Assembly (NCBI GenBank): GCA_030765525.1
Contig: JAVCCK010000034.1
Coordinates: 86,126-150,125 of the forward strand
From: Candidatus Lernaella stagnicola
Lineage (GTDB): Bacteria; Lernaellota; Lernaellaia; Lernaellales; Lernaellaceae
Length of the DNA stretch: 64,000 bases
Direction of reading: 5' to 3'
How positions within the stretch are numbered: the stretch's first letter is position 1; each line of letters begins with the position of its first letter. Shown in pieces: positions 987 to 42,434 of this stretch. The translations under genes were made by a program, and so were the position numbers. The notes under the pieces are model-generated. The model saw nothing but the letters and a program-made list of their open reading frames with translations. It did not search any database and was not told the origin of the DNA.

Positions 987-1053
987 TGGCGGCATGGTAG
1001 GTCGCGCGTCGTTCGCGTGCAAGACGGTGATAAACGCGTTACGATATCGACCG

Positions 1054-2442
1054 ATGTCCGCCGATCCACCCATCGTAAAAAGACCGTCCCGCGCGCTCAC
1101 CGTATTGGGCGCGGTGGTCGCCGCTTTGCTGGGCGCCCTGCTTTTTGTAGTCGGCGCGAACGAATACTTGTTTCCTTCCTGGGGACGGTATGTCGCGTTG
1201 GGGGCGGGCGTGGCGATTGGACTGACCCTCCGCCTGGTGCGCCGCGGGGCGGGGCACGAGTTCGCGTGGGCTCTACTGACTCTTTTCCTTTATAACGCTC
1301 ATCTCTCGCTTGGCGGCTACACCTATCTCGGTTGGGTCGCGCCGGTGTTGTTTATCCTGTTGGCGGCGATTCCTTATCCGTTGTTTCGTCGCCGGACGTG
1401 TCTCTGGCGTATTCTCGCCGGCCTGAACGCGGCGTTCTTTGTCGGGCTTGTGCTCTTGATGGTTTATCGTGATTTCAGCTTTGTCGACGAACGAGCACAG
1501 TGTCGAGCCGAGGCGGACAAGGCCCCGTCGTTTGTGCGGGAATTGGGCGGACCGACGCACCCTTACGACTTCGCGGGGAATCCGAAAGACGCAGTGGCCG
1601 GTGTCGCGTACGGTTATGAAAACGAGTTTTACCTGATCGATCGCGACCAACCCACGTTGCGTCGCGGCGGAACCCTGGATGCGCGAATTCAGCGTCTCAC
1701 GCCGCACCCGCAGCAACGCGAATTCTTTGTTCCCTTGTGGGCGCAATGGGGCACGGACGAGCGGATGTTCGTCATGGATATGGATGCCGGAACCAAGGTG
1801 CGGGAAATCGCCGTACCGGGTTGCCGGAATCTTTTCGACGTCGAGTTTTACGGGGGACGGCTGTACGCGTTGTGCGAGGTCAGTCATTCGCTGCACGAGT
1901 TCGACGAAGCGCCGCCGCATCAAGCACGCCGCTCGCTCGTGTTGCCGGGGATGGACAGCTACGACATGGCTATCGACGCTACCCGGGGCGTGGCATTTGT
2001 CAGCGACTGGTTTTCTCCCTGGTTGACGGTCGTGGATCTGGCGTCGATGACCGTCCGCGAAAAAAAGTGGATCGGCTTTTCCTCGTTCGAAGTAAAGCTT
2101 GGCCCCGACGACAACCTGTATGTGGCGCAGATGTTTCTCAGGCGGGTTCTGGTCTTGAACGCGAAAACGTTGGCACGCATCGACACAATTGACGCCGGGT
2201 ATGGGCCGCGGGATTTAGAGTTCGATCTCGACCGCGGTTTGTTGCTCATCGGTAATTACTTCGACGGGACGATCGACTACGTGCGTTTGGCCGACCGGAA
2301 GCGCATCGGACGGGTGTTTGTCGGCCGGCCCCTGCGCGGCTTGTGGTACGACGCCGACTACGACCGGCTCTACGCCGCCTGCGGGTGTGGTGTCAAATTC
2401 GCGAAAACCGGTGACGTATTCGAGGGGCAGGTGCAGCGATAG
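1054..2442 (+). CDS. membrane-anchored protein with beta-propeller-like (YVTN/YncE-type) repeats; hypothetical
   Basis: ORF 994..2442. The likely start is the internal Met (MSADPPIVKRP). The N-terminal ~150 aa are hydrophobic (4 predicted TM helices). The C-terminal 300 aa have repeated hydrophobic-strand/turn motifs (YLIDRD, LYALCEV, GVAFVSDWFSPWLTVVDL, NLYVAQ). Confidence 0.5.
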   Translation: MSADPPIVKRPSRALTVLGAVVAALLGALLFVVGANEYLFPSWGRYVALGAGVAIGLTLRLVRRGAGHEFAWALLTLFLYNAHLSLGGYTYLGWVAPVLFILLAAIPYPLFRRRTCLWRILAGLNAAFFVGLVLLMVYRDFSFVDERAQCRAEADKAPSFVRELGGPTHPYDFAGNPKDAVAGVAYGYENEFYLIDRDQPTLRRGGTLDARIQRLTPHPQQREFFVPLWAQWGTDERMFVMDMDAGTKVREIAVPGCRNLFDVEFYGGRLYALCEVSHSLHEFDEAPPHQARRSLVLPGMDSYDMAIDATRGVAFVSDWFSPWLTVVDLASMTVREKKWIGFSSFEVKLGPDDNLYVAQMFLRRVLVLNAKTLARIDTIDAGYGPRDLEFDLDRGLLLIGNYFDGTIDYVRLADRKRIGRVFVGRPLRGLWYDADYDRLYAACGCGVKFAKTGDVFEGQVQR

Positions 2443-2531: not shown

Positions 2532-3851
2532 TTGATGGGTGTTCGGTCGCCTCGCGGGCGCGAAATCGACTTGACGCGGCGCGTGCGTCGTGTTTCTCTT
2601 AACGTTCCTGAAAACAGGTGGTTTGCATTTGACGACATGTCTTGTTGGATGTCCGTGGTGAGCGAAAAATTGCAACAGAATATCAAAACCTGGCGCGCCG
2701 ATTTGGAGCGCTTTCCGGACAAGCGATTGTACCATCGCCTTGCCGAAGCGCTCCTGTCGCTGGGTGAAGCCGAGGAAGCCCTGCAAGTGGCCGAGGCCGG
2801 GATGGCGCGCCACAAGCGATATTGGTCTTGTCAGGAGGCCATGGGCGCGGTGTTGGTCGCCCTGGGACGTTACGACGAGGCCGTGACGGCGCTGGAAGGT
2901 GTCGCCGAGCACGGGGGTATCGGCGAAGGGAAACGCAACCTGGCCAAAGCGTATTACAGCGCCGGTCGCGATCAGGATGGCGCCCGTGTCTGCAAGGAAC
3001 TGCTCCGCGCCGATCCCTTCGACAAAACCGCCAAGCAGTTGCTCGTAAAAGGCAAAGCCGTGCCGGCTTCGCCGCGCTTTGAGACGCCGCCGGCCGTTGA
3101 GACGCCGGTCCAAGAGCAGCCGGTTGTCCCGATCGAACCCGAACCGATAGCCGAGCCCGAACCTATCGCGGCCGAAGCGCTGATCGAGCCCGAGCCGATT
3201 AGCGAACCTGAACCTATCGCGGCTGAAGCCCCGGCAGCACCGCCGACCGAATCGACAGCGTCGCCGGTCGAACAGCCCGCGGAGAGGTCTGCGGTCGTCG
3301 AAACTCCTTTCGAGGACCTGAGCACCAGCGAGACCGACAGAGTCGTGGACGATTTCTTCGACCCGTTGATGGAAGAGCCCGCTCCGGATCAAGAGGACGA
3401 CGCGCCCGCGCAGCCTGAGGTCGACGAGCCGGAGCCGCCGCCGGAGGAAGATATTGCCGACGAGGACGGCGCGGAGGATTCGGTTGGCGTGCTCTCCGAC
3501 CCCGTCGAGCCTGAGCCGGTGGGCCAGAGGGAAGGCTTCGCGGTCGCGGACGACGCGGATCCCGATGCCGACGATGTCGAACCGGCGCACGAGTACGACC
3601 CGACCGAAGGCATGGATGAAAACGTCGATATCGAAGACGTCGATGTTTTCGGAAGTCTGGACGAGAACAGCGCACCCGAGGCGAGTCCGGATGAAAACGA
3701 GGCGGCGGACGAGGGGGAGGAACTCGAAGACCACGACGACGAACACGAAGATGAAGACGACGCGTCTATCAACGAAGAGCAAGGCGATCATTCAACCAAG
3801 AAGAAAAAACGTCGGCGGCGATGGAAACCGTGGCGGAAGAACAAGGAGTAA
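2532..3851 (+). CDS. TPR-repeat protein with acidic Pro/Glu-rich repeat region and polybasic C-terminal tail; hypothetical
   Basis: N-terminal TPR-like helices (RLYHRLAEALLSLGEAEEALQVAEAG..., YDEAVTALEG..., AKAYYSAGRDQDG...). Middle has tandem EPEPIAEPEPIAAEA repeats, then a D/E-rich segment. Ends KKKKRRRRWKPWRKNKE. An alternative ATG start lies at 2637. Its stop overlaps the aroQ RBS. Confidence 0.6.
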   Translation: MMGVRSPRGREIDLTRRVRRVSLNVPENRWFAFDDMSCWMSVVSEKLQQNIKTWRADLERFPDKRLYHRLAEALLSLGEAEEALQVAEAGMARHKRYWSCQEAMGAVLVALGRYDEAVTALEGVAEHGGIGEGKRNLAKAYYSAGRDQDGARVCKELLRADPFDKTAKQLLVKGKAVPASPRFETPPAVETPVQEQPVVPIEPEPIAEPEPIAAEALIEPEPISEPEPIAAEAPAAPPTESTASPVEQPAERSAVVETPFEDLSTSETDRVVDDFFDPLMEEPAPDQEDDAPAQPEVDEPEPPPEEDIADEDGAEDSVGVLSDPVEPEPVGQREGFAVADDADPDADDVEPAHEYDPTEGMDENVDIEDVDVFGSLDENSAPEASPDENEAADEGEELEDHDDEHEDEDDASINEEQGDHSTKKKKRRRRWKPWRKNKE

Positions 3852-3855
3852 GACC

Positions 3856-4302
3856 ATGCCCCGCGTAAAAATCATTCACGGGCCCTTGCTGGACCGGCTT
3901 GGGGAGCGCGAAACGGATTACTACGGCACCGAACCGTTGGAGGAGATCAACGCCTCTTTGGTGGCCATGGGCGAAGCTGTGGGCGTCGAAGTGGATTGCT
4001 TTCAATCCGACATCGAGGGCGAAATCGTCACCGAGATCGCCAACTGCCGTGGCAAGTGCAATTTCCTCATCGTCAATCCGGCCGCGTACTCCCACACGAG
4101 CGTCGCGATATACGACGCAATCGTTTTTTGTCAGGTTCCGACGGTGGAAGTGCATCTATCAAACTTGGCCTCGCGCGAGCCGTTCCGGCGGCAAAGCACG
4201 ATCTCCAGCGTCGTGGTGGGGCGCCTTGAAGGTCTCGGACCGGACGGTTATCGCCTCGCCATGCGATTTTGTTTAGAAAGGTTGACGGCAAATGGCATCT
4301 AG
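3856..4302 (+). CDS. aroQ: type II 3-dehydroquinate dehydratase
   Basis: MPRVKIIHGPLLDRLGERE...IVNPAAYSHTSVAIYDAI...VEVHLSNLASREPFRRQS... is a canonical AroQ sequence of ~148 aa. An AAGGAG RBS lies 6 nt upstream of the ATG. The ORF-track 282-aa ORF is an upstream in-frame extension. Confidence 0.85.
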   Translation: MPRVKIIHGPLLDRLGERETDYYGTEPLEEINASLVAMGEAVGVEVDCFQSDIEGEIVTEIANCRGKCNFLIVNPAAYSHTSVAIYDAIVFCQVPTVEVHLSNLASREPFRRQSTISSVVVGRLEGLGPDGYRLAMRFCLERLTANGI

Positions 4303-5368
4303 ACTCGAGCGGTTACGGCAGGCTTTACGCGAGAAAAGCTTTGAAGCGGCGTATGTATCTTATCTACCGAACGTCCGGTATCTGGCCGGGTTTACGGGGA
4401 CCGAAGGGTCGCTGTTGGTCACGGCCGACACCGCGCTCTTTTTCACGGACTCCCGCTACACCGATCAAGCCGGGAAGCAAGTGACGCCGCATGGGTTCAA
4501 GGTCGTCCAGTTTCAGAAAAAACTGGAAGAAATCGGCGTGAAAGTTCAGGAGTTGGGTATCGCGCAACTCGGCATCGAAGACAAAGCGATGACCGTGGCC
4601 ATGCACCGTGATTTCGCCACGCACTTGGGCGAGGTCAAGGCGACGCCGCTCGGCGGGTTGGTCACCAATTTGCGCGTTATCAAGGACGAGGCGGAACAGG
4701 AAAAAATCCGCCGCGCCGTTCAGGTGCAGGAACAGGCGATGGAGAAGATTCTGCCGATGATCGTGCCCGGTGCGGTCGAGCGCGACATCGCCTTTGAACT
4801 CGAAACCGAGATGCGGCGGCTCGGCGCCACAAGCCCGTCGTTCGATACGATCGTCGGTTCTGGGCCGCGCGGGGCCATGCCGCACGGCGTGGCTTCGGAC
4901 AAGGAAATTGCGGCCGGCGAGTTGGTCGTGCTCGATTGGGGTTGCGTGGTTGACGGTTATTGTTCCGATCAGACGCTGACGGTCGCTGTCGGCGAAGCGG
5001 CTGATCCGGAGGCCCACAAAGTCTACGACATCGTTTATAAAGCCCAGCGCCAGTGTATTGAATCGATCCGGCCGGGCATGGCCATGAAGGAAATCGATAA
5101 AGTTGCACGCGATGTGATCACCGAGGCCGGTTATGGGAAGCTCTTCGGGCATGGGACCGGTCACAGCCTGGGTTTGGAGATTCATGAGGATCCACGGGCC
5201 AGCATGCTCGGTGAGGGCAACGCGCAAATAGGGATGGTTTTCACCGTTGAACCCGGCATCTATTTGTCGGGACGCTTCGGCGTGCGCCTCGAGGATATCG
5301 TGGTCGTTACCCAGACAGGAGCCGAATGTTTGACCACGATGTCCAAGAAATGGCGATCCACCCTTTAA
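4292..5368 (+). CDS. M24 family Xaa-Pro aminopeptidase/dipeptidase
   Basis: The N-terminal creatinase-like domain begins MASRLERLRQALREKSFEAAYVSYLPNVRYLAGF. The M24 metal-ligand region reads VLDWGCVVDGYCSDQT...HGTGHSLGLEIHEDP...FTVEPGIY. It overlaps aroQ by 11 nt. Confidence 0.85.
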   Translation: MASRLERLRQALREKSFEAAYVSYLPNVRYLAGFTGTEGSLLVTADTALFFTDSRYTDQAGKQVTPHGFKVVQFQKKLEEIGVKVQELGIAQLGIEDKAMTVAMHRDFATHLGEVKATPLGGLVTNLRVIKDEAEQEKIRRAVQVQEQAMEKILPMIVPGAVERDIAFELETEMRRLGATSPSFDTIVGSGPRGAMPHGVASDKEIAAGELVVLDWGCVVDGYCSDQTLTVAVGEAADPEAHKVYDIVYKAQRQCIESIRPGMAMKEIDKVARDVITEAGYGKLFGHGTGHSLGLEIHEDPRASMLGEGNAQIGMVFTVEPGIYLSGRFGVRLEDIVVVTQTGAECLTTMSKKWRSTL

Positions 5369-5539: not shown

Positions 5540-8500
5540 TTGGCCAAGGACAAAAAAGGTAAAAAGGACGGCTTGCTTAGTAAGCTTAAGGGATCCAAGC
5601 AAAAGAAATACGATCCCGAACTCGCCGAGCTGCAACGTGAGGTGCAGGATGACCCCGCGAATATGCGCGCCCGCCGTAAGTTGGCGGACTACTACCTCAA
5701 GCGGGGCGATAAGCTCAAGGCGCTGGATCAATACCTGACCGTCGCGGAAACCTACGCCGAAAAAGGCTTTTATCCCAAATCCGTAGCCGTGTACAAGCAG
5801 GCGCTGCAGTTGCAGCCGGATATGATCGAAATCTACCTCAAGCTCGCCGGCCTCTACCGCAAACTCGGCCTGATTCCCGAAGTGGTCGAGCAGTACCATA
5901 AGGCCGCTGCGATTTACGAAAACCAGGGCAAAAATCGTGAAGCGTTAGACATGCGCCGCATGATGCTCGACCTGGATCCGTCCAATATCATGGGTCGCCT
6001 GAAGCTTGGACAGAAGTACCTCGAAGGAGGGTTCAAAACCGAAGCGTCCGCCTCGTTTCTGCGCGTCGCCGAGTTGTTTGAACAACAAGGGAAAACCGCA
6101 GAAAAACAGAAGCTGCTCGAGGGCGTCCTCGATCGCGGTCTCGAGGTTTTCGAAATCCTCTATAAGCTGGTTGAACTTTACCGGGAGCAAGGCCACCCGG
6201 AATTGGCGCTGGCGCGATTGGCCAAACTCAGCGGCGAACTCGCCGGCAGTAGCAGCACGTTGGAGTTGACGGCCGAAATCGCCGCGGAACTCGGCAAGCC
6301 CGCCGTCGCCATCAAGGCGCTGGAACGCGCGAGCGAGCTTTACCGCAAAATCGACCGCATGGACAAAGTGCGCGAGGTGTGTGAGCGCATCTTGGAACTC
6401 GACGTCGACAACGAATACGCCGTTACCCGGCTTTCGGAGATTCCGTCTCCACCTGTGTCGGAAGATATCGAACTCGAGCCTCTGCCGGAAATGGAGGAAG
6501 AAGAAGAGTTCGAAACGATCACGCCGCCGGCTGCCAAGGTCGAAAAGGCTGTCGAAGAGATCACCATCGAGGATGACGAACTGCCGTTGGAAGAGGTGAG
6601 CCCAGAAGAAGAGCCCGTCATCGAGGAAGTCCAGATCGAGGATGATCTGGTGATCGAGGAAGTGGCGCTCGACGAAGAACAACCCGTAGTGGAAGTCGAA
6701 CCGGTCGAGGTGGAAGAGCCCGAGCCTGCCGAAATCGAGGAGATTGCACTCGAGGAAGAGCCGGTCGTCGAAGAAGTTGCGGTGGAAGAAGAGGTCGCGA
6801 TCGAAGAAGTTGCGATGGAAGAGGCCGAACTCGAGGAAGAGCCCGTCGTCGTAGAAGTCGCGATGGAAGAGGAGCCCGTCGTCGAAGAAGTTGCGGCCGA
6901 AGAAGAGGTCGCCGCCGAGGCCGAGGAACCGGTCGAAGAAGAGGCCGAAGAGGAAGGCCCGGACCAGATCGATCTGGGCGAGATGAGCGAAGAGGAAGCA
7001 GCCGAGCGCCTCGACGAGGCGATCGATATTTACTTGAAGTACAACCTGCGCGACAAGGCCGTTGAGTACCTCAACCTGGCGCTGGAGCGGAATCCATCAT
7101 CCCTGCTGGTGCTTGAAAAACTCATGACCGTGCACCGCGACTCCGGCGAGGACGCGAAAGCCGAACAGATTCTCGGCGAACTCATCGAAATCGCGCAGAA
7201 ACAGCAGCGGGTCGAGAAACTCGAGCAATACCTCACGCAGATGCTCGAAGCTTCTCCCGACGATCTGGACACCGCGCTGCGCTTGGCCGAACACTACGAG
7301 GAAACCGAGCCGGAACGCGCCATCGTTCATTTCTTCGACCTCGCCAACCGTCATCGCGACCTCGAAAACGCCGACGAAGCCGAACTCATGCTGGATCGTA
7401 TCTTGGCGATCGATCCCGAACACGAAGGCGCGCACCGCGAACTGCTCGATATTTTCGAACAAAGCGGCCAGATCGACAAAGCCGTCGAGAAGCTGTTCGC
7501 GTTGGCCGAAGCCGCTCGTGATTCCGGCGACACCGAAAGCGCCGAGAATTTCCTCATGCGGGTGTTGGACCATCACTCCAACGAAGATCGCGCACAAGAG
7601 GAATTGTTGGCGCTCTACGACCACGCCGGGGCCACCGACAAGTACGCCGATTTGCTGCGCCGTGTGGCCGATCAAAACGCTCAGGCGGGGCATTACGACC
7701 GCGCACTCGAGCAGTACGGGCAATGGCTCGATTTGGATGAGGACAACCTCGAAGCGCGGGAACGCATCAAAGACCTGTATCTCGAAAAGGGCGACACCGA
7801 CGAAGCCATCGGCATTCTCATCGATATCGCCGAGCGCGCGGCGGACGAGCATCCCACAAAAGCCGCCGAAGCCTTGCGCGAGATTCTCTCTTTGGATTCC
7901 GATCACGTGGCGGCCCGCGAGTCCCTGCGCGACGCGCTGCTGGCGGCCGGGGATGTCGCCGGAGCCGTCAACGAAATGATGACTCTGGCCAAAGCCGCTC
8001 TGGAGAACAGTGAGGCCGAGGAAGCGTTGGGGCATTTGGACGGCGTGCTCGGCGTCGATCCGCGCAACGACCAAGCGCTACGCCGCAAGATTTCCATCCT
8101 GCGCGATCTGGGTCGCGAGGACGAAGCGACCGAACTGCTCTTTGAGATCGCGGCCTTTGCCGAGCGTTCCGGCGACATCGACAAGGCCGAGGCGACGCTT
8201 CGCGAGGTGCTGGCGACCGACGAACACGCCATACGCGCCCGCATCTCGTTGAAGGATCTGTTCCTCAACGCGGGCCTGGAAGACAAAGCCGTAGCCGAGT
8301 TGATCGACTTGGCGCAAACCGCCGAGCAGACCGGAGACAACGATACCGCGCTGGTGTACTGGGGCGAAATCTCCGGCCTCGACCCCGACAATCTCGACGC
8401 GCGCAAGGGGATCGCCCGGTTGCATTTGGCCGGCGGCGACACCGACAGCGCCGTGTCCGAATTGCTTTCTGTGGCCGGCCTTCAAGAGACCGGGGGCGAC

Positions 8501-11500
8501 CTCGACGGCGCGATCGAAACCTTGCGGCAGGCGTTGGAATACGACGAACAGAACGAAGTCGCCGCTTCCCGCTTGATCGAATTGCTGCTGCAGACCGGCC
8601 AAACGGAGCCGGCCGTCGAATTGCTCATGACCGAAGCGGCGCACGCGCGTAGTGCGGGGCGGTTGCCGAAAGCTCGTGATTCATACGAACGGGTCATCGA
8701 GCATGACGGCCGGAACGTCGAGGCGCGCCGGCAACTCAAAGAGGTGTATCTCGGAACCGGGCGGCAGGATCGGGCGATCGAACAGTTGTTCGCCATGGCC
8801 GATCTTTTCAAGGCGCTCGATGAACCGGACAATGTCGAAGCCGCGCTGCGTGAAGTCATCGAACTCGACGGAGAAAATACGGAAGCCGCCACCGCGCTCA
8901 AGGACCACTACTTCGCCAGCGGTCAGCAAGCCGCAGGCTTGGATATGCTCCACGATTTCGTCCAGAAGGCTCGGGCACAACGGGAGATCGAAGAGGCGAA
9001 GACATTCGCCGAGGAAATGTTGGCCGTCCAGAGCGACGACCGCCGCGCCCTGATTGCGCTGGCCGAAATCGCCGTAGAGGAAAACGACACGTTCGCCGCC
9101 GTCGGTCGCTTCCGCACCCTGGCGGGTTTGGCGCTTGCCGAGAACGCCAACGAAGAAGCCGAGCGTCATTTCGCGCGTATCATTGAGTTGGACGACGCCG
9201 ACGCCGAGGCCCGCGCCGAACTAAAAACGCTGCTGCTGGCGCGTGGTGATCGGCTCGGCGCCACCGAGCAATTGTTCGCGCTTGCCGACCTGGCCGGCGA
9301 AGGCGGAGATTCCGACGAAGCGCTTCGCTATTACCGCGAAGTCCTCGAACTCGATTCCCGAAACGAAACGGCGTTAGAGAATTTGGTCGACATCATGGTT
9401 GCCGCCGGCGATGGCGATCAGGCGATCGAAGAGATGTTCCTGCTGGCCGAAATCGCGCGGGAGAAAACCGATTTCACGCGCGCCGAACGTTTCCTGCGGC
9501 AAGTGCTGGATGTCGACGGCGACAATACCCAAGCGCTGGAAATTCTCAGCGATGTGCATATCGCGGGCGGCGAGACGGGCCAGGCGGTCGAGGAACTCTT
9601 CCGCTTGGTAGAGGCGGCCGAGAACGCCGAGGATTATGAACACGCTTTGGGATTGGTCGATCGCGTGCTTGATCTGGATGAGGAAAACATCAACGCGTTG
9701 GGCAAAAAGGCCGACTTACTCGATCTTTTGGAGCGCCACGACGAGGCCGTCGCTTCTCTGCTGCAACTCGCCGGTGCCCAACGGGCGCGCGAACTTGACG
9801 ACCACGCCGAGCGCGCGCTGCGTAAGGCGCAAAAACTCGCGCCGGAAGACCAAGGTGTTCACGACGCCCTGATCGATTTGTTGAGCGGTGCCGAAGATAC
9901 GCAGCCGGTGATCGACGAACTGCTTCGCTTCAACGGCGCGGCGATTGAAGACGGCGACCACGACAAAGCCACCACGGTGGCCCGGCGTATTCTGGACCTC
10001 AATCCGCGCTTCGAACGCGCACACCGCATGCTCATTGACGCGCTCAAGGCGCAGGACGAACTCGAAGCCGCCACCGAAGCGCTCTTCGCGCTCAGCGATC
10101 TGCAGGCCGAAGCCGGCGAGCAGGCGGCGGCGGAGGAGACGATCGAAGAAGTCTTGTCGCTGGAGGCAACCAACCAAGCCGCCATCGACAAACTTACGAT
10201 GTTGATGCTCGACACCGGCCGCCACAGCGAGGCCGTCAAGCTGCTGTTGGCCTTTGGCGATCGGTTGCAGAGGGTTGAGCAATTCGCCGAAGCGCGCACC
10301 GCGTTCGAGCGCGTGCTCGACATCGAAGACGGCGACGCCGAGGCGCTGGGTAAACTCAAGGAATCTTATCTGGTCACGTCCGATATGGCCGAAGCGGTGG
10401 AGATTCTCTTCCGCACGGTCAGCGCCGCGGATTCGCGTCACGAAGAGGACTTGGCGTTCGACTCGTTGCGCGAAATCCTTGAACTGGACGAGCGCAACAT
10501 CGAGGCGTTCGAAGACCTGAAGGCGCGTTTGTTCAAGGCCGACCGGGTCGACGATGCCGTCGATCTCATGCTGATGGCCGACGAAAAAATGCCGCCGGTT
10601 TGGGACGAGGATCGCCGCATCGACAACCTGGAAGAAATTCTTGAGACCGACGAACAGAATAACGAAGCGTTGGAACGGCTCGCCGATATTTTCAAGAGAA
10701 CCGATCAAGCCGATCGCGCGATGGACATTCTTTTCCGGTTGGCCGAACTCGCCGAACAAGACGGCGACAGCGAAGGGGCCGCGGGGCGACTGGGCGACAT
10801 CATCGCCATCGACGGACGCAATCTGCGGGCTCACTTGCGCGTGGCGAATCTCTACGAACAGGCGGGTGATGAGGACGCGCTCGCTGCGCGCCTGTTGACG
10901 ATCGCCCACCTGCAGCAGGACGCGGGTGACTTGGACGAAGCCGCCGCGACTCTTCGCCGCGTGCAGGCAATCGAGAAGTTCGAGGAAAAAGCGCTGCGGG
11001 AACTGGATGATCTCTTCGGCGCGGCGGGCGACGAACAGCAGCGGCTGGAAGTCCGTTTCGAACTTGCCGCCGTGTACGGCCGCCGGGACGATGTCACCGA
11101 GGCCGAGGCGATCTACCTCGGGATTCTCAAGCAGGATACCGACAACCTGCTCGCGCGTGATTCGGTTATCAATCTGTACGCGGAGCACGAGCGCGGTGCC
11201 GATGCCGCGGCGCAGGCGATCGTTCTGGCCGACCGGGCGCGTAAAGCCGAGGACTTTGACGAAGCCATTTCGCGTTACGAGCAGGTGCTGTTCTTCGACG
11301 TGGATAACACTAAAGCAAGGCGTCATTTGAAATCCTTGCTGGTTAAGACCGAGCAGTTCGGGGCTGCGTGCATGCAGCTTCGCGTCTTGGCCGACGCGGC
11401 ACGCGATGGCGACGATTTGATCGCCGTGGAAGACGCTTTGACCGAGCTTTTGCAACTCCAACCGGACGATTTGGACGTACGCCGCGAGTTGGTGGATCTC

Positions 11501-13561
11501 TACGAGGAGACCGGCCAGCCCAACAAGGCGGTCATTCAATTGCTCGACCTCGCCGAGCAGCTTAGCGCGGCGGACGAGTCGGACGAGGCGGTCACGCAGC
11601 TTGAACGCGCCGTCGTCATGCAGCCGGGCAACGAGCCGGTCAACCAGCGGTTGGCCGAAGCCTACGGCGCGGCCGGCGAGAACGAGAAGGCGGTCGAGAA
11701 ATTCTTCCAATTGTATGAAATCGATATGGCGGCGCGGCGTCGGCGCGGCGCGGAAAGACACCTGCGCGAAATTCTCGAAATCGACCCCGACAACGCCGAG
11801 GCGAAAGAAAAGGTTTTCGACCTATTCAAGGCCGGCGTAACGCCGGAAGAAAAAATCGCCGATTTGTTCGAGCGGGCCGAAGAGTCGCTGGCCGGCGGCG
11901 ATATCAAGGCCGCCGAGCAGGCGCTCAAGCAGGCGCTCGTGATTGACCCGAGTCACAGCGAAGCGCGGGAACTGTTGACCCAAATCGCCACCACGCCCAC
12001 GCCGGAAATCGGCATCGAAGAACCGATCTCCGACGAGGTGTTCGACGTACAGGCCGTGAGTGACGAAACCGGAACCAGCGACGAGGAAATCGAAATCGAT
12101 TGGGGCGAACCCGAAGCGGCCGAAGAAGTGGCCGAAGAGATCGCCGTGCCGCACGCAGAACCGGACGAGGAAGTCGCTGCAGAGGGCGTGGAAGATGTCG
12201 ACGTGTTCGGCGACATGGCCGAAGGCGCACCCGAAGCCACGGCGGCGGAACCGGTTGCGGATGATGACCTTTCGCCGGAAGAGGTTGCTTTGGAAGACGC
12301 AATCGACCGCGTCGATTCGGCGTTGAGCGACAGCTTCGGCCAAGAGGGCGAGGAAGTGGAAGCCCCGGAAGAAGCCAAGGCTTCGGAAAACGTCGGCGAG
12401 AAATGGGTGGAGCGGCTCTTGCCGGAGACGGAAGAGGAAGCGACCCCCGAAATCTCCGAGGGAGAGTTTGCCGCCGCTGAGGAAGACATCGCCGAGATGG
12501 CCGCTCCTGCGGAAGCAGAGGTCGTCCAAGAGGAGTCGACCGACGAACTCACGCGGGCGATTGACGAATTCCTGGACGGCGCCACGCAGGAAGAAGAGCC
12601 GCCGACCAGCCTCGTGACGGAAGCGGAGCCCGAGACGGAATCGGCTGAAGATGTCGAAATGGTCGAAGGCCTGACGCAGGGCATTGACGATGTGTTCGAC
12701 CGGGAAGAGCCCGCGGCGGAAGCAGTCGTAGACGGCGACGAGATCTCCTCCGATGACTTCCTCGACGAAAAAGCCGAAGAAGAGCCCACCGAGGAAGGGC
12801 GCGTCGTCGAAGACTTCAAGCCGTTTACGGAGTCGACGCCGGAAGAAACGCTGGAGGGCGAAGTGGCTCCACCGGCGAGCGATGATGACTTCATGTCCGA
12901 TCTCCTGCACGAACTGGAGGAGGGGCAACCGGCGGAAGAAAAGCCTGCCGCTGAAGAAGCCGCGAGTGAGCCGCGCGACCTTTTCGACGAAGTGTTCGGT
13001 GAGGCCAAGACCGCCGCCGGTGCCGAAGGAAGCGGCGATGCTTTCGACGAATTGCTCGGTGATTTGGGCGAGGCGGGGAAGGCCTCCGAGGAAGACGACA
13101 TCTTCAAGTCTTTTGTCGAAGGTCTGCCGGAAGAGTTGCGCTCGTCCAATTCGGCGCAGACTCATTACGACCTGGGCATTGCGTTCCGCGAAATGGACTC
13201 GAACACCGAAGCCATTGCCGAACTCGAGAAGGCGCTGATCAAGGACGACGGTTCGCTGGCGTTCGCCGTCAATTACGAGTTGGGCCAGTGTTACGCCATC
13301 CTCGAAAAATTCGATATGGCCGTTGATTACTTCGAAACCGCGATATCGGCGGGCACCGACGACGAACAAGTCATGCTCGACCTCACTTTCGAATTGGCGG
13401 TCGCGCTCAAGAATATGGGCGAGTTCGGCGAGGCGAAAAAGTTCTTCGAGCAAGTCGACAAACAGTCGAAAAATTATCGCGGCGCCAAGGCTGAGATCGC
13501 CGAGTGCAAAGCCGGTGGCAAGAAACGCGGCGGGGACGACGATAACATCGGATACCTTTGA
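5540..13561 (+). CDS. giant (2673 aa) acidic TPR-repeat protein
   Basis: Single uninterrupted ORF, starting at TTG 5540 (GGGAG RBS 8 nt upstream) or the in-frame ATG at 5663. The whole length is built of TPR-like helix pairs (…ADYYLKRGDKLKALDQYLTVAETYAEKGFYPKSVAVYKQALQLQPD…, repeated dozens of times, e.g. …NEEAERHFARIIELDDADAEARAEL…). There is an E-rich low-complexity insert near aa 300-470 and an acidic disordered region near aa 2150-2530. The C-terminal TPRs end ...AKAEIAECKAGGKKRGGDDDNIGYL. Its stop overlaps the start of the downstream ATPase gene. Confidence 0.8.
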   Translation: MAKDKKGKKDGLLSKLKGSKQKKYDPELAELQREVQDDPANMRARRKLADYYLKRGDKLKALDQYLTVAETYAEKGFYPKSVAVYKQALQLQPDMIEIYLKLAGLYRKLGLIPEVVEQYHKAAAIYENQGKNREALDMRRMMLDLDPSNIMGRLKLGQKYLEGGFKTEASASFLRVAELFEQQGKTAEKQKLLEGVLDRGLEVFEILYKLVELYREQGHPELALARLAKLSGELAGSSSTLELTAEIAAELGKPAVAIKALERASELYRKIDRMDKVREVCERILELDVDNEYAVTRLSEIPSPPVSEDIELEPLPEMEEEEEFETITPPAAKVEKAVEEITIEDDELPLEEVSPEEEPVIEEVQIEDDLVIEEVALDEEQPVVEVEPVEVEEPEPAEIEEIALEEEPVVEEVAVEEEVAIEEVAMEEAELEEEPVVVEVAMEEEPVVEEVAAEEEVAAEAEEPVEEEAEEEGPDQIDLGEMSEEEAAERLDEAIDIYLKYNLRDKAVEYLNLALERNPSSLLVLEKLMTVHRDSGEDAKAEQILGELIEIAQKQQRVEKLEQYLTQMLEASPDDLDTALRLAEHYEETEPERAIVHFFDLANRHRDLENADEAELMLDRILAIDPEHEGAHRELLDIFEQSGQIDKAVEKLFALAEAARDSGDTESAENFLMRVLDHHSNEDRAQEELLALYDHAGATDKYADLLRRVADQNAQAGHYDRALEQYGQWLDLDEDNLEARERIKDLYLEKGDTDEAIGILIDIAERAADEHPTKAAEALREILSLDSDHVAARESLRDALLAAGDVAGAVNEMMTLAKAALENSEAEEALGHLDGVLGVDPRNDQALRRKISILRDLGREDEATELLFEIAAFAERSGDIDKAEATLREVLATDEHAIRARISLKDLFLNAGLEDKAVAELIDLAQTAEQTGDNDTALVYWGEISGLDPDNLDARKGIARLHLAGGDTDSAVSELLSVAGLQETGGDLDGAIETLRQALEYDEQNEVAASRLIELLLQTGQTEPAVELLMTEAAHARSAGRLPKARDSYERVIEHDGRNVEARRQLKEVYLGTGRQDRAIEQLFAMADLFKALDEPDNVEAALREVIELDGENTEAATALKDHYFASGQQAAGLDMLHDFVQKARAQREIEEAKTFAEEMLAVQSDDRRALIALAEIAVEENDTFAAVGRFRTLAGLALAENANEEAERHFARIIELDDADAEARAELKTLLLARGDRLGATEQLFALADLAGEGGDSDEALRYYREVLELDSRNETALENLVDIMVAAGDGDQAIEEMFLLAEIAREKTDFTRAERFLRQVLDVDGDNTQALEILSDVHIAGGETGQAVEELFRLVEAAENAEDYEHALGLVDRVLDLDEENINALGKKADLLDLLERHDEAVASLLQLAGAQRARELDDHAERALRKAQKLAPEDQGVHDALIDLLSGAEDTQPVIDELLRFNGAAIEDGDHDKATTVARRILDLNPRFERAHRMLIDALKAQDELEAATEALFALSDLQAEAGEQAAAEETIEEVLSLEATNQAAIDKLTMLMLDTGRHSEAVKLLLAFGDRLQRVEQFAEARTAFERVLDIEDGDAEALGKLKESYLVTSDMAEAVEILFRTVSAADSRHEEDLAFDSLREILELDERNIEAFEDLKARLFKADRVDDAVDLMLMADEKMPPVWDEDRRIDNLEEILETDEQNNEALERLADIFKRTDQADRAMDILFRLAELAEQDGDSEGAAGRLGDIIAIDGRNLRAHLRVANLYEQAGDEDALAARLLTIAHLQQDAGDLDEAAATLRRVQAIEKFEEKALRELDDLFGAAGDEQQRLEVRFELAAVYGRRDDVTEAEAIYLGILKQDTDNLLARDSVINLYAEHERGADAAAQAIVLADRARKAEDFDEAISRYEQVLFFDVDNTKARRHLKSLLVKTEQFGAACMQLRVLADAARDGDDLIAVEDALTELLQLQPDDLDVRRELVDLYEETGQPNKAVIQLLDLAEQLSAADESDEAVTQLERAVVMQPGNEPVNQRLAEAYGAAGENEKAVEKFFQLYEIDMAARRRRGAERHLREILEIDPDNAEAKEKVFDLFKAGVTPEEKIADLFERAEESLAGGDIKAAEQALKQALVIDPSHSEARELLTQIATTPTPEIGIEEPISDEVFDVQAVSDETGTSDEEIEIDWGEPEAAEEVAEEIAVPHAEPDEEVAAEGVEDVDVFGDMAEGAPEATAAEPVADDDLSPEEVALEDAIDRVDSALSDSFGQEGEEVEAPEEAKASENVGEKWVERLLPETEEEATPEISEGEFAAAEEDIAEMAAPAEAEVVQEESTDELTRAIDEFLDGATQEEEPPTSLVTEAEPETESAEDVEMVEGLTQGIDDVFDREEPAAEAVVDGDEISSDDFLDEKAEEEPTEEGRVVEDFKPFTESTPEETLEGEVAPPASDDDFMSDLLHELEEGQPAEEKPAAEEAASEPRDLFDEVFGEAKTAAGAEGSGDAFDELLGDLGEAGKASEEDDIFKSFVEGLPEELRSSNSAQTHYDLGIAFREMDSNTEAIAELEKALIKDDGSLAFAVNYELGQCYAILEKFDMAVDYFETAISAGTDDEQVMLDLTFELAVALKNMGEFGEAKKFFEQVDKQSKNYRGAKAEIAECKAGGKKRGGDDDNIGYL
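6440..6960 (+). repeat. in-frame imperfect tandem repeats encoding (E-E-V-A/P-V-x) glutamate-rich tract inside the giant TPR gene
   Basis: Nucleotide-level reiteration of gaagaagttgcggtggaagaagaggtcgc-like units. Protein reads PVVEEVAVEEEVAIEEVAMEEAELEEEPVVVEVAMEEEPVVEEVAAEEEVAAEAEE. Confidence 0.6.
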
Positions 13562-14493
13562 TGAACTACCTTGAGTTCTACGCGCTGGAGCGCGAGCCCT
13601 TTTCCAACGTGCCTGACCAACGCTTTTTTTGGAACGGTCGTTCGCACCAGGTCGCCCTGACCAAACTGCAATTCGCGCTCTCCCAACGCCGCGGCCTAGC
13701 CCTGGTCACCGGCGAAATCGGCGCGGGGAAAACCACGCTGGCCCGTCAACTCTTTGAGTCGCTGGACGACGACAAATTCTTCCGCGCCTTGCTCGTGGTG
13801 ATTCACGCCGAGGTGACGGCCGATTGGCTATTGCACCGGTTCGCTCAATTGCTGGGCGTCCCCGAACCCAAACACGGCAAGCTGGAATTGCTCGGGCAGA
13901 TATACCAACGCCTACGCGAAATCGACCGCGAAGATAAGACCGTCAGCCTGCTTATCGATGAAGCCCAGATGCTCGGCACCCGCGAACTGATGGAAGAATT
14001 CCGCGGCCTGCTCAACATCGAAATGCAGGGGCGAAAGCTGATCAACTTCGTGTTCTTCGGTCTGCCGGAAGTCGAACAGAACCTCACGCTCGACGAGCCC
14101 CTCCGCCAACGCGTCGCGCTGCGCATCGGCCTGCAACGCTACGACGAACACGACACCACCGAATACATCGCGCACCGCTTGAGAATCGCGGGCGGCGACC
14201 CGGAATTGATCAACGTCGACGCGGCCCGTTGCGTGCACTCTTTCAGCCTCGGTTCGCCACGCGTAACCAACGCGATTTGCGACAACCTGCTGCTGGAGGG
14301 TTTCCTCGATGAAACCCGGACGTTGACCGTGGAGATGGCGAAAAAAGTCGCCGGCGAACTGAATCTTCAACCGCCGCAACGGGACCCGCTCGCCGAAATC
14401 CTGGGGCGGCGACCGGGCAATCAACCGGCGCCGAACGCCGAAGAATGGCGCGAGGTTGACCTCGATAAACTGCTGAGTTTCCTCGACGAGTAA
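13558..14493 (+). CDS. ExeA/GspA-like AAA ATPase (AAA_22; general secretion pathway protein A-like / PEP-CTERM-locus-type secretion ATPase family)
   Basis: N-terminus is LEFYALEREPFSNVPDQRFFWNGRSHQVALTKLQFAL. Walker A is LVTGEIGAGKTTLARQL and Walker B is SLLIDEAQML. These match the typical ExeA/MshM architecture. The ATG at 13561 overlaps the TGA of the giant TPR gene (TGATG). Confidence 0.8.
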   Translation: MMNYLEFYALEREPFSNVPDQRFFWNGRSHQVALTKLQFALSQRRGLALVTGEIGAGKTTLARQLFESLDDDKFFRALLVVIHAEVTADWLLHRFAQLLGVPEPKHGKLELLGQIYQRLREIDREDKTVSLLIDEAQMLGTRELMEEFRGLLNIEMQGRKLINFVFFGLPEVEQNLTLDEPLRQRVALRIGLQRYDEHDTTEYIAHRLRIAGGDPELINVDAARCVHSFSLGSPRVTNAICDNLLLEGFLDETRTLTVEMAKKVAGELNLQPPQRDPLAEILGRRPGNQPAPNAEEWREVDLDKLLSFLDE

Positions 14494-14499: not shown

Positions 14500-15390
14500 A
14501 TGGTCGAAATTTACGCGAAGACAGAGAAGCGGATCATCAAAGGCAATGACGGCACGCCGCTGGCCGTTTGGATCATGGGGGACGGGCCGGTGGATTGGGT
14601 CATCGCGCCCGGTCTCGGCACGCCGCACATTTCCTGGAAGTTCATTGTCGAGCGTTTCCAACACCAATTTCGCGTAATCACCTGGGACGCCCGGGGTACG
14701 TACTCGTCGGGCACGCCGCGCGACATGGATCGCCTGCGGGTCGAAGACCACGCTGCGGACTTGTTCGCGGTTGTCGATGAACTCGGTATTGACGAGTTTA
14801 TCGCCGGGGGGTGGTCGATGGGCGTGCAGATATCGCTCGAGGCCTTTCACCGGCAGCCCGAGCGCTTTTCCGCGCTCATTCTGCTAAACGGAGCTCCGGG
14901 TCAACTGCTTTCAACGGCGTACGGCGTTCCCGGTTTTGAGAAATTCGCCATTGCCGTTCTTAATGTCAGCAGCCGTTTCGGCTCGCTGTTCGGCCCGGCG
15001 TTTACTTGGTTGCTGACCCAGCCGTGGACGCTTTCGACCATGAAGGCGCTGCAGATATTTACCGACAACGAAGAGTATTTCAGAAAGATGGTCGGTACCT
15101 TCCGGGACCTCGACTTCGGCACCTACTTTAAGATGATGGTGCTCACGAACGAACACACGGCCGTACCATATCTACCGGAGGTCGACGTGCCGACGCTGAT
15201 TACCGCCGGCACCAAAGACAAGATGACGCCGCTGAAGACGGCACATTTGATCGTTGATACGATACCCAACGCGGAACTGTTCATTGTTCCCAACGGTACC
15301 CACTACACGATTGTCGAATATCCGGAGATCATCAATCTGCGCTTGGAACGCTTTTTCCGCGATCACGTGCCCGAAGCGAACGTGGACTAG
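14500..15390 (+). CDS. alpha/beta-fold hydrolase
   Basis: The nucleophile elbow is GGWSMGV (GxSxG). The distal segment reads LITAGTKDKMTPL...VPNGTHYTIVEYPE with the catalytic His. Total 296 aa. Confidence 0.7.
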   Translation: MVEIYAKTEKRIIKGNDGTPLAVWIMGDGPVDWVIAPGLGTPHISWKFIVERFQHQFRVITWDARGTYSSGTPRDMDRLRVEDHAADLFAVVDELGIDEFIAGGWSMGVQISLEAFHRQPERFSALILLNGAPGQLLSTAYGVPGFEKFAIAVLNVSSRFGSLFGPAFTWLLTQPWTLSTMKALQIFTDNEEYFRKMVGTFRDLDFGTYFKMMVLTNEHTAVPYLPEVDVPTLITAGTKDKMTPLKTAHLIVDTIPNAELFIVPNGTHYTIVEYPEIINLRLERFFRDHVPEANVD

Positions 15391-15414: not shown

Positions 15415-15485
15415 AAGGACCGTGGGGGAGCACGGTCCTTCACTCCTTAGCTACTCGGTCGCAGGCCAAAATCGAATAGCTAAGT
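15415..15485 (+). terminator. two stem-loops downstream of the hydrolase gene (putative terminator / RNA structure)
   Basis: Hairpin 1 is ggaccgtg-ggggag-cacggtcc (~15417-15438). Hairpin 2 is ttagctactcg...cgaatagctaa (~15447-15482, 11-bp stem with 1 mismatch) followed by gtgttttc. Confidence 0.4.
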
Positions 15486-20361: not shown

Positions 20362-21719
20362 GTGGCAAAACGTTTCGCCTCACCAGCCTGGGCTGCGCGA
20401 AAAACCTCGTCGATAGCGAGGGGCTCGCGGCCTTGTTGGTACGGGCCGGTTGGCGTCTGGTAGACGACGGCCCGGTCGATTTGGTCGTGGTCAACACGTG
20501 CAGTTTCGTCGAGGATGCCGCGCAAGAATCGGTCGATACGCTGCTGGCCGAGGTGGAGCAGAAGCGGGCCGGGCAGACGAGTCGGCTCGCGGCGGTGGGG
20601 TGCCTGCCGCAGAAATACGGTGACGAACTCGCCGACGCCATGCCCGAGCTCGATCTCGTGCTCGGCACCGGGGACCTAGGTTCGATCGTTCGCCGCCTCG
20701 AGCATTTGATCGACACCAACGAGCGGGAAATCGCCGTCGGCCCGCCGTCCGCGGTGTACGAGGAATGGCCCGCCCGTCTGCGGTCGCAGCCCGCGCACCG
20801 CGCCTATCTGAAAATCGCCGAAGGATGCGACAACGCCTGCGCCTTCTGCATCATCGGGCGCTTGCGCGGCCCCTTCCGCAGTCGCGCGCCTGAAGCGATT
20901 TTGGCCGAGGCGGCCGACCTGGGCGCAGCCGGCGTCGTCGAACTCAATTTGGTTGCGCAGGATTTGACGCTTTATGGGCGCGACCTCGCCTCCGCGACAA
21001 CGTTGGCCGAACTACTGCCGCGCCTATCCACCGCCGTGGACGACACCGCTTGCCGCCGCTTGCGATTGCTCTATTTGCACCCGGCGCGGGTCGAGGAAAA
21101 CCTGCTGCGAGTGATCGCCGAGACACCGCGGGTTGTCCCGTACCTCGACATGCCGCTCCAGCATGTCAGCGACCGCGTTTTGCAGCGGATGGGTCGGCCG
21201 CAGAACGCCGCCGATTCGCGCCGTGTTGTGGAACTGGCCCGCCGCCTGGTGCCCGACGTGGCGATCCGCACGACCTTCCTGCTCGGTCATCCCGGAGAGA
21301 GTGAGGACGACTTTGCGGCCTTGCTCGATTTCGTGGCGGAGTATCGTTTCGAACACCTCGGCGCGTTCGCGTGGTCGCCGGAAAAAGGCACCGTGTCATA
21401 TGAACAGGACGATTGGGTCGAAGCCGAATTGCGGGCCGAAAGGGTGGAGCGATTGATGGAATTGCAGCAGGGCGTCAGTCACGAACGGTTGCGCGAGCGG
21501 ATCGGTGGCGTAGTGGAATTGTTGGTCGAGGAGGTGCTCCATAAGCACGATGACGAGGCCTATTCGCACATCGGCCGTCTACCGCAACAAGCGCCCGAAA
21601 TCGACGGCGTCGTGTACCTTCGCGCGCCCCGCGAAGAGGCGTGCCGACCCGGGGACATCGTTCGCGCCGTTGTGACCGATGCCCACGACTACGATCTGTT
21701 CGCCGATCTACTCGCCTGA
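20358..21719 (+). CDS. rimO: ribosomal protein S12 methylthiotransferase RimO (MiaB-family radical SAM)
   Basis: The MTTase N-domain reads FRLTSLGCAKNLVDSE...VVNTCSFVEDA. The radical SAM motif is AEGCDNACAFCII. The TRAM C-terminus is PEIDGVVYLRAP...PGDIVRAVVTDAHDYDLFADL. The sequence is collinear with E. coli RimO. Confidence 0.8.
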   Translation: MSGKTFRLTSLGCAKNLVDSEGLAALLVRAGWRLVDDGPVDLVVVNTCSFVEDAAQESVDTLLAEVEQKRAGQTSRLAAVGCLPQKYGDELADAMPELDLVLGTGDLGSIVRRLEHLIDTNEREIAVGPPSAVYEEWPARLRSQPAHRAYLKIAEGCDNACAFCIIGRLRGPFRSRAPEAILAEAADLGAAGVVELNLVAQDLTLYGRDLASATTLAELLPRLSTAVDDTACRRLRLLYLHPARVEENLLRVIAETPRVVPYLDMPLQHVSDRVLQRMGRPQNAADSRRVVELARRLVPDVAIRTTFLLGHPGESEDDFAALLDFVAEYRFEHLGAFAWSPEKGTVSYEQDDWVEAELRAERVERLMELQQGVSHERLRERIGGVVELLVEEVLHKHDDEAYSHIGRLPQQAPEIDGVVYLRAPREEACRPGDIVRAVVTDAHDYDLFADLLA

Positions 21720-29415: not shown

Positions 29416-29418
29416 ACG

Positions 29419-31743: not shown

Positions 31744-31745
31744 TC

Positions 31746-42396: not shown

Positions 42397-42424
42397 TGGA
42401 CAAGGGCGCAATCGTAAGTATAAT
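42397..42424 (+). promoter_or_regulatory. sigma70-type promoter for tRNA-Thr
   Basis: TGGACA, then a 16-nt spacer, then TATAAT, ending ~10 nt before the mature tRNA 5' end. Confidence 0.45.
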
Positions 42425-42434
42425 CATCCACCGC

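Follow-up and report, generated by a model that had tools for sequence, protein, structure and literature searches.

A giant tetratricopeptide repeat gene overlaps an ATPase gene

In a 64,000-nucleotide (nt) stretch of the genome of Candidatus Lernaella stagnicola, here called the window and used for all coordinates, we analyzed a pair of overlapping genes (Table 1). The first encodes a protein of 2673 amino acids (aa) built from tetratricopeptide repeats (TPRs), referred to as the scaffold, and the second encodes an ExeA-like AAA+ ATPase. The pair belongs to a module already known from SgmX and MXAN_5765 of Myxococcus xanthus, and its novelty lies in the giant, length-locked form of the scaffold. 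Loci are labeled L and protein clusters P; the giants are the 16 protein clusters (90% identity) P0121-P0136.

The original prediction for this locus, made from the DNA letters without database searches, had described a single intact 2673-aa acidic reading frame, and so we found it: all 2673 codons are open, and the product has a net charge of -408. The GC content by codon position of the open reading frame (ORF) is 0.73/0.35/0.73, the typical coding pattern in the window. The TTG start is preceded by the Shine-Dalgarno sequence GGGAG with a spacer of 7 nt and aligns with the starts of the orthologs (MAKDKKxKK). Because intact orthologs of 2571-2855 aa are carried by many independent assemblies, the ORF is not an assembly artifact, and it did not turn out to be several genes, the outcome that the prediction had named as speaking against it. 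Pfam analysis of the scaffold yielded TPR_19 (320 bits in 11 stretches) plus further TPR models. A hydropathy check found no transmembrane (TM) segment in the scaffold or the ATPase, and the basic, hydrophilic N terminus of the scaffold has no signal peptide or lipoprotein signal (maximum 19-residue hydropathy, 1.18). Both proteins are by these predictions cytoplasmic, in keeping with the proposed pairing of the ATPase with a cytoplasmic TPR scaffold.

At the gene junction (..CTT TGA TG..), the stop codon at 13559-13561 and the ATG at 13561-13563 overlap by 1 nt, as had been noted from the letters; the sharing of this A is the classic arrangement where translational coupling is predicted. The ORF listing has an alternative TTG one codon before the ATG, and the orthologs begin at M. 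The ATPase has a clear match to Pfam AAA_22 (PF13401) at 84 bits against a cutoff of 27, and its Walker A (GxxGxGKT) and Walker B (hhhDE) motifs and a GxPR motif are invariant in 31 ATPase homologs, including G54, G56, K57, T58, D133, and E134. The best curated ATPase family is TIGR03015, matched end to end (194.4 bits, model positions 2-267 of 269). The prediction of an ExeA-like AAA_22 ATPase therefore holds, and no assignment to a transposition-helper family emerged. The other two profile searches suggested at the time fell short of their cutoffs, TIGR03015 at 194.4 of 324.5 bits and TIGR02917, run on the scaffold, at 198.1 of 312.2 bits. Since ATPases adjoining undoubted SgmX genes have equally subthreshold TIGR03015 scores (200-206 bits), such a score marks the broad ExeA-like clade and not a PEP-CTERM system. 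Searching the PDB with the ATPase profile returned only weak matches to TnsC (E 2e-4) and RuvB, and no ExeA ATPase structure was found.

Table 1. Positions of the scaffold-ATPase pair, its parts, and the adjoining genes in the window
Feature	Position (nt)	Strand	Residues (aa)	Remarks
aroQ	3850-4299	+		Upstream synteny marker
M24 Xaa-Pro peptidase gene (pepQ)	4292-5368	+		Upstream synteny marker
Giant SgmX-family scaffold gene	5540..13561	+	2673 aa	TTG start, TGA stop, uninterrupted ORF
Basic N-terminal peptide	5540..5605	+	1-22	MAKDKKGKKDGLLSKLKGSKQKK; 41% K/R; kept in 16/16 giant clusters
N-terminal TPR block	5606..6424	+	23-295	Five 54-aa units; homolog of the SgmX N-terminal pilus-activating part (TAD)
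Acidic E/P/V-rich insert 1	6425..6991	+	296-484	43% D/E, net charge -78
Solenoid core	6992..11974	+	485-2145	About 31 contiguous 54-aa three-helix units
Acidic insert 2	11975..13129	+	2146-2530	35% D/E, net charge -119; probably disordered
C-terminal TPR domain	13130..13489	+	2531-2650	3 TPRs; homolog of the SgmX M-domain (TPR12-14)
C-terminal tail	13490..13558	+	2651-2673	Gly/Lys linker, then DDDNIGYL-COOH
ExeA-like AAA+ ATPase gene (MXAN_5765 type)	13561..14493	+	310 aa	ATG start
Walker A	13711-13734	+		GEIGAGKT (GxxGxGKT pattern)
Walker B	13948-13968	+		LLIDEAQ (hhhDE pattern)
Conserved C-terminal amphipathic helix of ATPase	14455-14490	+		VDLDKLLSFLDE
Alpha/beta-hydrolase gene	14500..15390	+		Pfam Abhydrolase_1; 6 nt after the ATPase gene

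The two ends of the scaffold match SgmX

SgmX is the central switch for the pole at which Myxococcus builds pili. It serves as an MglA-GTP effector by which type IVa pili are activated at the leading pole; of its repeats, TPR1-8 are activating, TPR9-11 bind FrzS, and TPR12-14 bind MglA-GTP (PMC7668184, PMC7519303, PMC9811614).

The sole curated match of the scaffold that is not generic is NCBIfam NF052243 (SgmX), with 131.9 bits for the whole protein. Residues 23-308 align to model positions 18-303, and at the other end the last 193 aa cover positions 868-1015 of 1065 (33 bits, E 1.9e-8), so that the ends match collinearly, N to N and C to C. By BLASTP, the N-terminal block is 29% identical to that of an Anaeromyxobacter SgmX homolog over a gap-free alignment (E 2e-30). 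Using phmmer, we found collinear matches of the block to the N termini of nearly all ATPase-linked partners fetched, and the best matches of the C-terminal domain in these partners were always C-terminal.

On the ATPase side, a protein search found 5552 homologs at E<=0.001, and a motif scan with one genome per species gave 506 confirmed ATPase loci, the best 80 of which were fetched. The window ATPase is 48-55% identical to the ATPases encoded after SgmX homologs in Myxococcota (53% to that of Anaeromyxobacter paludicola). Its C-terminal helix (VDLDKLLSFLDE; IDLDEIDRFLESL) is common to the ATPases of giants and Myxococcota and is missing from the shorter Nitrospirota ATPases. We are highly confident in the sequence-based family assignment of both genes, the scaffold to the SgmX family in a broad sense that includes Bd2492-like proteins and the ATPase to the MXAN_5765 type. 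The scaffold is placed there because its C-terminal peptide, described below, and its collinear end domains together exceed generic TPR similarity.

The giant scaffolds have a length-locked core

Between these ends lies a long, regular core flanked by two acidic inserts. An iterated hidden Markov model finds the repeat units in strict 54-residue register, five in the N-terminal block and about 31 across aa 485-2145. An AlphaFold2 model of aa 575-1389, made with a 15-sequence alignment, has a predicted local distance difference test (pLDDT) score of 91.1 and exactly three helices per unit (13-14, 17, and 14 residues), with 45 helices in succession. According to the model, the core is a regular alpha-solenoid and not a series of classical 34-residue helix pairs. 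Where the original prediction saw TPR-like helix pairs throughout, its TPR assignment agrees with Pfam, but the repeat unit is a 54-aa three-helix one. A Foldseek search of the core model against the PDB returned just generic long TPR solenoids (IFT139/TTC21B, Ski3, Ctr9, and OGT) with TM-scores of <=0.18, which confirms the TPR-solenoid fold class for the modeled core and nothing more. PDB sequence searches with the N- and C-terminal domains of the scaffold matched only designed and generic TPRs, and no SgmX structure was found. The core units have a mean pairwise identity of 24%, there are no repeats at the DNA level in the core, and the units are, by their sequences, old.

Both acidic segments were seen correctly from the letters. 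The E-rich tandem-repeat insert placed at aa ~300-470 corresponds to insert 1, inside which Tandem Repeats Finder located DNA repeats with periods of 33 and 81 nt at 6748-6951, and the ~400-aa acidic segment near the C terminus corresponds to insert 2 (aa 2146-2530, 35% D/E), which directly precedes the C-terminal domain. A conserved NYRGAKAEIAEC helix (aa 2645-2656) precedes the Gly/Lys linker of the tail. The basic N-terminal peptide is missing from ordinary SgmX orthologs, which start with MDKNKIIEAA.

The 16 giant clusters, 2571-2855 aa in length and with identities down to 26%, have one common plan including the basic N-terminal peptide; one of them (P0136) comes from Ca. Alcyoniella australis, phylum Ca. 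Lernaellota. The N-terminal block is exactly 273 aa long in 16/16 clusters, with zero indels. The core measures 1661 aa in the window scaffold, 1660-1662 aa among the 11 clusters that are 42-58% identical, and 1654-1657 aa in three clusters at 26-30% identity; each of the remaining two has a single block inserted in the core, 320 aa (about 6 units) in one and 264 aa (about 5 units) in the other. The acidic linkers vary, linker 1 from 149 to 320 aa and linker 2 from 196 to 443 aa. Conservation among giants is 0.65 for the N-terminal block, 0.56 for the C-terminal domain, 0.42 for the core, and 0.25-0.33 for the linkers, with insert 2 lowest (0.25). When 1.84 billion representative proteins were searched exhaustively with the N-terminal 300 aa, about 12 N-collinear giants (2164-2855 aa) and many ordinary members of 600-1260 aa were found.

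A role as a spacer or ruler, or precise higher-order assembly, are obvious ideas that may account for the length-locking. In the literature searched, we found no description of the giant length-locked architecture, of the C-terminal peptide that is present across the family, or of its co-loss with the ATPase. The locus is a natural experiment in which two functional ends are set apart by a rod of fixed length. If spacing matters, this constrains models of how a polar signal reaches the pilus base; if it is immaterial, why 1661 residues are so extremely free of indels has to be explained all the same.

Proteins of about 3050 aa, namely P0137-P0143 and others like them, were considered as orthologs and rejected, having another N terminus and no C-terminal domain and matching by repeat units only. 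A second giant-protein family using similar 54-aa units (P0137, P0139, P0147, P0148, P0150, P0151, and others) has the N terminus ..VNEQLDP..LLE.IGF.. and no SgmX-type C-terminal domain. Its lengths are also uniform, with 16 representatives within 3039-3120 aa.

Pairing with the ATPase and the C-terminal peptide

In the best 80 of the 506 ATPase loci, a gene for a TPR protein of 600-1365 aa nearly always comes directly before the ATPase gene, with gaps of +3 to -130 nt. The genomes of these 80 loci are labeled as Myxococcota, Nitrospirota/Thermodesulfovibrionia, and one Bdellovibrionales metagenome-assembled genome (MAG). The gene order in A. paludicola is pilO-pilP-pilQ-..-efp-accB-accC-TPR-ATPase-TamB-Omp85, and the order pilQ-efp-accBC-SgmX-ATPase-TamB-Omp85 recurs in about 10 Myxococcia-type loci. 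The SgmX-ATPase-TamB-Omp85 order is that of the published four-gene unit MXAN_5766-5763, in which SgmX is first (PMC7668184, PMC3983030). MXAN_5763-5765 co-occur with SgmX in STRING (PMC11580455). Inactivating MXAN_5765 or MXAN_5764 leaves S-motility unaffected (PMC7668184; for MXAN_5765 also PMC11580455). Taken as a unit, SgmX and its ATPase make up an old module of two genes, which extends well past the myxobacteria into Nitrospirota and uncultured lineages.

The scaffolds and their ATPase-linked relatives share a C-terminal peptide motif, which we define as [VIL]x[YF][VILM]-COOH after a Gly/Pro/Lys-rich linker. Giants end in ..DDNIGYL, ..GFL, or ..VGYV, Myxococcota partners in ..KNIDYV or ..RKVGYV, and Nitrospirota partners in ..KDRVSYL. 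Of the 73 ORFs that immediately precede the ATPase gene, 70 carry the motif, compared with a chance expectation of 0.13%. At least one of the three motif-less ORFs is a miscalled frame (the true Anaeromyxobacter gene ends in RKKIGYV), and the other two have no alternative frame with the motif. It is also found, in RKVGYV-like form, in 119/120 SgmX orthologs of Myxococcaceae and Archangiaceae, including the Corallococcus protein named SgmX in UniRef.

The giants themselves differ in whether an ATPase gene adjoins. The ATPase gene is adjacent and the peptide present in the window, in the giants of L001/L002, L004, and L006, and on the contigs shared by P0121/P0005, P0122/P0006, P0128/P0017, and P0129/P0012. 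For P0130 (L089) and P0131 (L091), 67 nt separate the giant stop codon from the hydrolase gene with no ATPase gene in between, and the peptide is absent (..KKKDRSLI); these loci otherwise match the window, with the order TPR-aroQ-M24 peptidase-giant-hydrolase-carbamoyltransferase-HGD-D-MiaB-like. P0136, from Ca. Alcyoniella, has no peptide, and no ATPase gene lies in the 4.6 kb that separate it from the downstream end of its contig. P0132-P0134 have the peptide and no ATPase gene within 3-6 kb, and P0135 (L093) has the peptide and an ATPase gene 3.3 kb downstream, followed by TamB. The obligatory coupling implied by the original prediction does not hold, given these syntenic relatives with a giant gene and no ATPase gene. 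Two independent lineages (P0130/P0131 and P0136) lack both the peptide and, in the 5-6 kb of downstream sequence covered, the neighboring ATPase gene; this co-loss suggests, and does not prove, that the peptide is a handle for the ATPase. The C-terminal peptide is thus suggested as a candidate docking site of the ATPase, and a conserved peptide that is lost together with the neighboring ATPase gene makes for a concrete, testable contact.

Full-length ATPase homologs with 50-51% identity and no adjoining TPR gene occur at L084 (10001-10948 of contig ctg94717l) and L007. They carry the same C-terminal DxILxFLxK helix, and the L084 gene adjoins fn3 and GAF-HD genes; they may be unlinked partners of giants in other lineages. 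On a Nitrospirota contig (L085), a gene for a Ras/Arf-like small GTPase lies at 20590-20822, about 10 kb downstream of a TPR-ATPase pair.

Gene neighborhood in the window

The alpha/beta-hydrolase gene that follows the ATPase gene is probably cotranscribed with the pair. It neighbors the giant gene with or without the ATPase gene in L001, L089, and L091. Between it and a convergent carbamoyltransferase operon is a strong 10-bp GC-rich hairpin (15415-15440) that has a T-run in its minus strand and, on the plus side, an A-run; it is likely a bidirectional terminator. Apart from this hairpin, a promoter and terminator scan of the operon gave nothing above the shuffled expectation.

Upstream, the order aroQ-M24-giant is also found in L001, L086 (Ca. 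Alcyoniella), L089, and L091. We use aroQ and the M24 peptidase gene as synteny markers; they are not shown to be functionally linked to the giants. A gene for a 439-aa TPR protein (2532-3851, plus strand) upstream of aroQ is syntenic with the giants; its product is 41% identical to a 361-aa TPR protein of L089, and its counterpart in L001 has 451 aa. A 482-aa ORF at 994-2442 (plus strand) has no Pfam or NCBIfam match.

Farther downstream, at 28381-32966 (plus strand), there is a gene cluster for the synthesis and export of exopolysaccharide (EPS), which encodes a Poly_export/SLBB protein resembling Wza, a GNVR+AAA_31 tyrosine kinase resembling Wzc, and a glycosyltransferase of type GT2. It is 14 kb from the pair and is not syntenic with it in relatives. 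No gene for an exosortase, a secretin, or GspB was found among the window ORFs scanned with Pfam, which do not include all small ORFs; within that scope, the original statement that the window has no exosortase or secretin gene is correct. TamAB genes were not found in the window, nor is the pil-upstream/tamAB-downstream linkage, which is seen in Myxococcia-type loci and in part (ATPase-TamB) in L093.

A 2104-aa ORF (36125-42439, minus strand) joins four radical-SAM domains to two B12-binding domains and one SPASM domain in a single polypeptide, an unusually large multi-radical-SAM fusion, and further B12/radical-SAM ORFs lie at 32917-34419 and 57917-59878 (both plus strand). A 692-aa subtilase (22028-24106, minus strand) has a C-terminal MopE-type putative metal-binding motif.

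What the pair may do

We think that the pair is probably a giant SgmX-type scaffold and an accessory ATPase serving the polarity and pilus machinery. In the mechanism we propose, the C-terminal domain would read a polarity signal, probably an MglA-like GTPase as in Myxococcus, and the N-terminal block would engage a target machine, most likely that for type IVa pilus extension. The fixed-length solenoid rod, with flexible acidic linkers on either side, would keep the two ends apart. The ATPase would be made in step with the scaffold via translational coupling, would dock at its C-terminal end with the [VI]x[YF][VIL]-COOH peptide as the candidate site, and would act as an accessory loader or remodeler and not as an essential motor. 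A nonessential role of this kind fits because deletions of MXAN_5765 and of mshM or mshN, an ATPase/TPR gene pair of Vibrio cholerae, are silent (PMC7668184, PMC4624765). Among giants, conservation is highest in the two regions whose homologs in SgmX are its pilus-activating end and its MglA-binding end. That pilus or polarity control is the actual cellular role in this organism is a tentative proposal, made by analogy.

Several points weigh against a giant SgmX with an accessory ATPase. The scaffold, at 131.9 bits, fails the 1800-bit equivalog cutoff of NF052243. That cutoff marks only close Myxococcus-type orthologs, because the 973-aa TPR homolog of A. paludicola (618 bits) and a Myxococcaceae MAG partner matched at full length (1105 bits) also fall below it. 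Part of the TPR similarity is generic, as the MamA, PilW, and PrsT models match the scaffold too. The FrzS-binding S-domain (TPR9-11) has no identifiable counterpart, with no specific match to SgmX model positions ~600-860; FrzS is, to our knowledge, restricted to myxobacteria. Within the 64-kb window there are no pil genes, nor mglA/mglB, romR, or frzS. ATPase adjacency varies among giants, several of which have no adjoining ATPase gene, and the docking idea leans on just two independent co-loss events. A single-chain fold of the ATPase with the C-terminal 153 aa of the scaffold, computed without an alignment, had a mean pLDDT of 37.6, and the model is unusable. The silent MXAN_5765 deletion leaves the ATPase without an assigned role even in the model organism.

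A bolder version of this proposal, which we regard as speculative and rather doubtful, is that the giants form a distinct class of molecular rulers. In these, a rigid rod of about 31 units would fix the distance between a GTPase-reading C-terminal domain and an effector-activating N-terminal domain, and by recognizing the ..IGYL-COOH peptide the ExeA-like ATPase would load or unload the rod or remodel it. If true, this would assign a function to the phenotype-less ATPases of the MXAN_5765/MshM type.

The main rival explanation grants the same ancestry and assumes another job: the giant would be a fixed-length cytoskeletal ruler or hub for an envelope process, such as outer membrane biogenesis of the TamAB/AsmA type or general pole organization, with the ATPase again accessory. 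The length-locked core would suit such a role, as would the location of the locus among housekeeping genes (aroQ and pepQ) and away from pil genes, the basic N-terminal peptide and acidic linkers that ordinary SgmX lacks, and the TamB gene after the ATPase gene in L093 and Myxococcia. Bd2492 of Bdellovibrio bacteriovorus is cotranscribed with tamAB-like genes, and an envelope or pole role has been proposed there (PMC3983030). However, the best-conserved parts of the giants are the homologs of the pilus-activating and MglA-binding domains, the window has no TamAB genes, and such a ruler has no experimental precedent. We consider this explanation unlikely, though a serious competitor to the SgmX-type reading.

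The original prediction drew its precedents from PEP-CTERM/exosortase EPS loci and secretin assembly and saw in the pair a large ATP-driven platform, possibly one that organizes the envelope and EPS machinery encoded nearby. The idea of an ATPase-TPR platform is reasonable and has more precedents than were listed; a link to PEP-CTERM/EPS or secretin systems is not upheld. For a TIGR03015 ATPase with a PrsT-like TPR protein, one can cite TIGR03015 as the best curated ATPase match (194 bits, full length), the TIGR02917 (PrsT) match to the scaffold in 10 stretches (198.1 bits), and the Wza/Wzc/GT2 genes at 28.4-33 kb. Yet both scores lie below their cutoffs (324.5 and 312.2 bits), and Myxococcus-type ATPases next to true SgmX score alike (200 bits). 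Moreover, PrsT is a lipoprotein, while the scaffold has neither signal peptide nor TM segment, no exosortase appeared among the scanned ORFs, and the EPS genes, which lie 14 kb from the pair, do not occur in the relatives' syntenic loci. A PEP-CTERM-type pair is therefore very improbable here.

Slightly less weight still can be given to the reading of the ATPase as a secretin-assembly factor of the GspA/ExeA type that serves type II secretion, its TPR partner standing in for GspB. The name comes easily, with an AAA_22 domain and homologs that JGI labels "general secretion pathway protein A / ExeA", but the 310-aa ATPase has neither the TM segment nor the peptidoglycan-binding domain typical of ExeA, no GspB or secretin gene appeared among the scanned ORFs of the window, and the partner is predicted to be cytoplasmic. 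Least probable of all is a mobile or defense module, be it a transposition helper of the TniB/TnsC kind or a split STAND NTPase with a TPR sensor, for although TnsC is the best solved-structure sequence match (E 2e-4) and there are weak Pfam nSTAND3/6 matches, PADLOC gave no meaningful defense-system match, no transposase or effector domain is present, the housekeeping-gene synteny is stable across distant lineages, and the GC content is unremarkable.

Comparison with known systems

The original prediction held that a TPR scaffold of this size coupled to such an ATPase is far beyond the precedents it named. This is true of the size, as the partners usually have 600-1365 aa, and not of the pairing, for which SgmX with MXAN_5765 and MshM/MshN are precedents. 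The closest is M. xanthus SgmX (MXAN_5766), which is likewise cytoplasmic and all-TPR, has a homologous N-terminal block and C-terminal 3-TPR domain in the same order, ends in the common ..[VI]G[YF][VIL]-COOH peptide, and is directly followed by an ExeA-like AAA_22 gene. The window scaffold is 2.5-fold larger (2673 versus 1060 aa); its length-locked core consists of about 31 additional 54-aa units, and where SgmX is proline-rich it has two long acidic linkers. Unlike SgmX, it has a basic N-terminal peptide and no recognizable S-domain, and its gene is not beside pil or tamAB genes as M. xanthus sgmX is.

Bd2492 of B. bacteriovorus has been reported as an SgmX homolog, a TPR protein that interacts with MglA and RomR and localizes to a single pole; its gene heads an operon (PMC3983030, PMC7519303). 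It differs from the window scaffold in having 353 aa and in being followed not by an ATPase gene but directly by tamAB-like genes. In the MSHA type IV pilus operon of V. cholerae, MshM and MshN are encoded by adjacent ExeA-like ATPase and TPR genes, and deleting mshM or mshN does not abolish pilus production (PMC4624765). Here the likeness, by description, is the ATPase/TPR gene pair in a type IV pilus context, and the silent deletion parallels that of MXAN_5765; the order differs from that of the window pair in that the ATPase gene comes first, and MshN is a small protein, encoded like MshM within an operon for pilus biogenesis.

The TIGR03015-PrsT pair of XrtA/PEP-CTERM systems is another instance in which the ExeA-like ATPase/TPR theme recurs, with an ATPase alignable end to end; it is set apart by the below-cutoff scores of the window proteins, the lack of a lipoprotein signal, and the lack of an exosortase among the scanned ORFs. 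ExeA/GspA differs in its TM segment and peptidoglycan-binding domain, both missing from the window ATPase. The polar hubs FimV and HubP, which take part in organizing type IV pili at the pole, are very acidic, with long low-complexity acidic regions and a C-terminal TPR-like domain, and they also carry a TM segment and, in the periplasm, a LysM domain. JGI annotation names many myxobacterial SgmX orthologs "pilus assembly protein FimV" (P0300, P0315, P0346, P0371, and others), a label that is misleading because the LysM and TM parts of FimV are missing from them. The giant scaffold also has no LysM domain or TM segment and, compared with FimV and HubP, is built as a regular solenoid.

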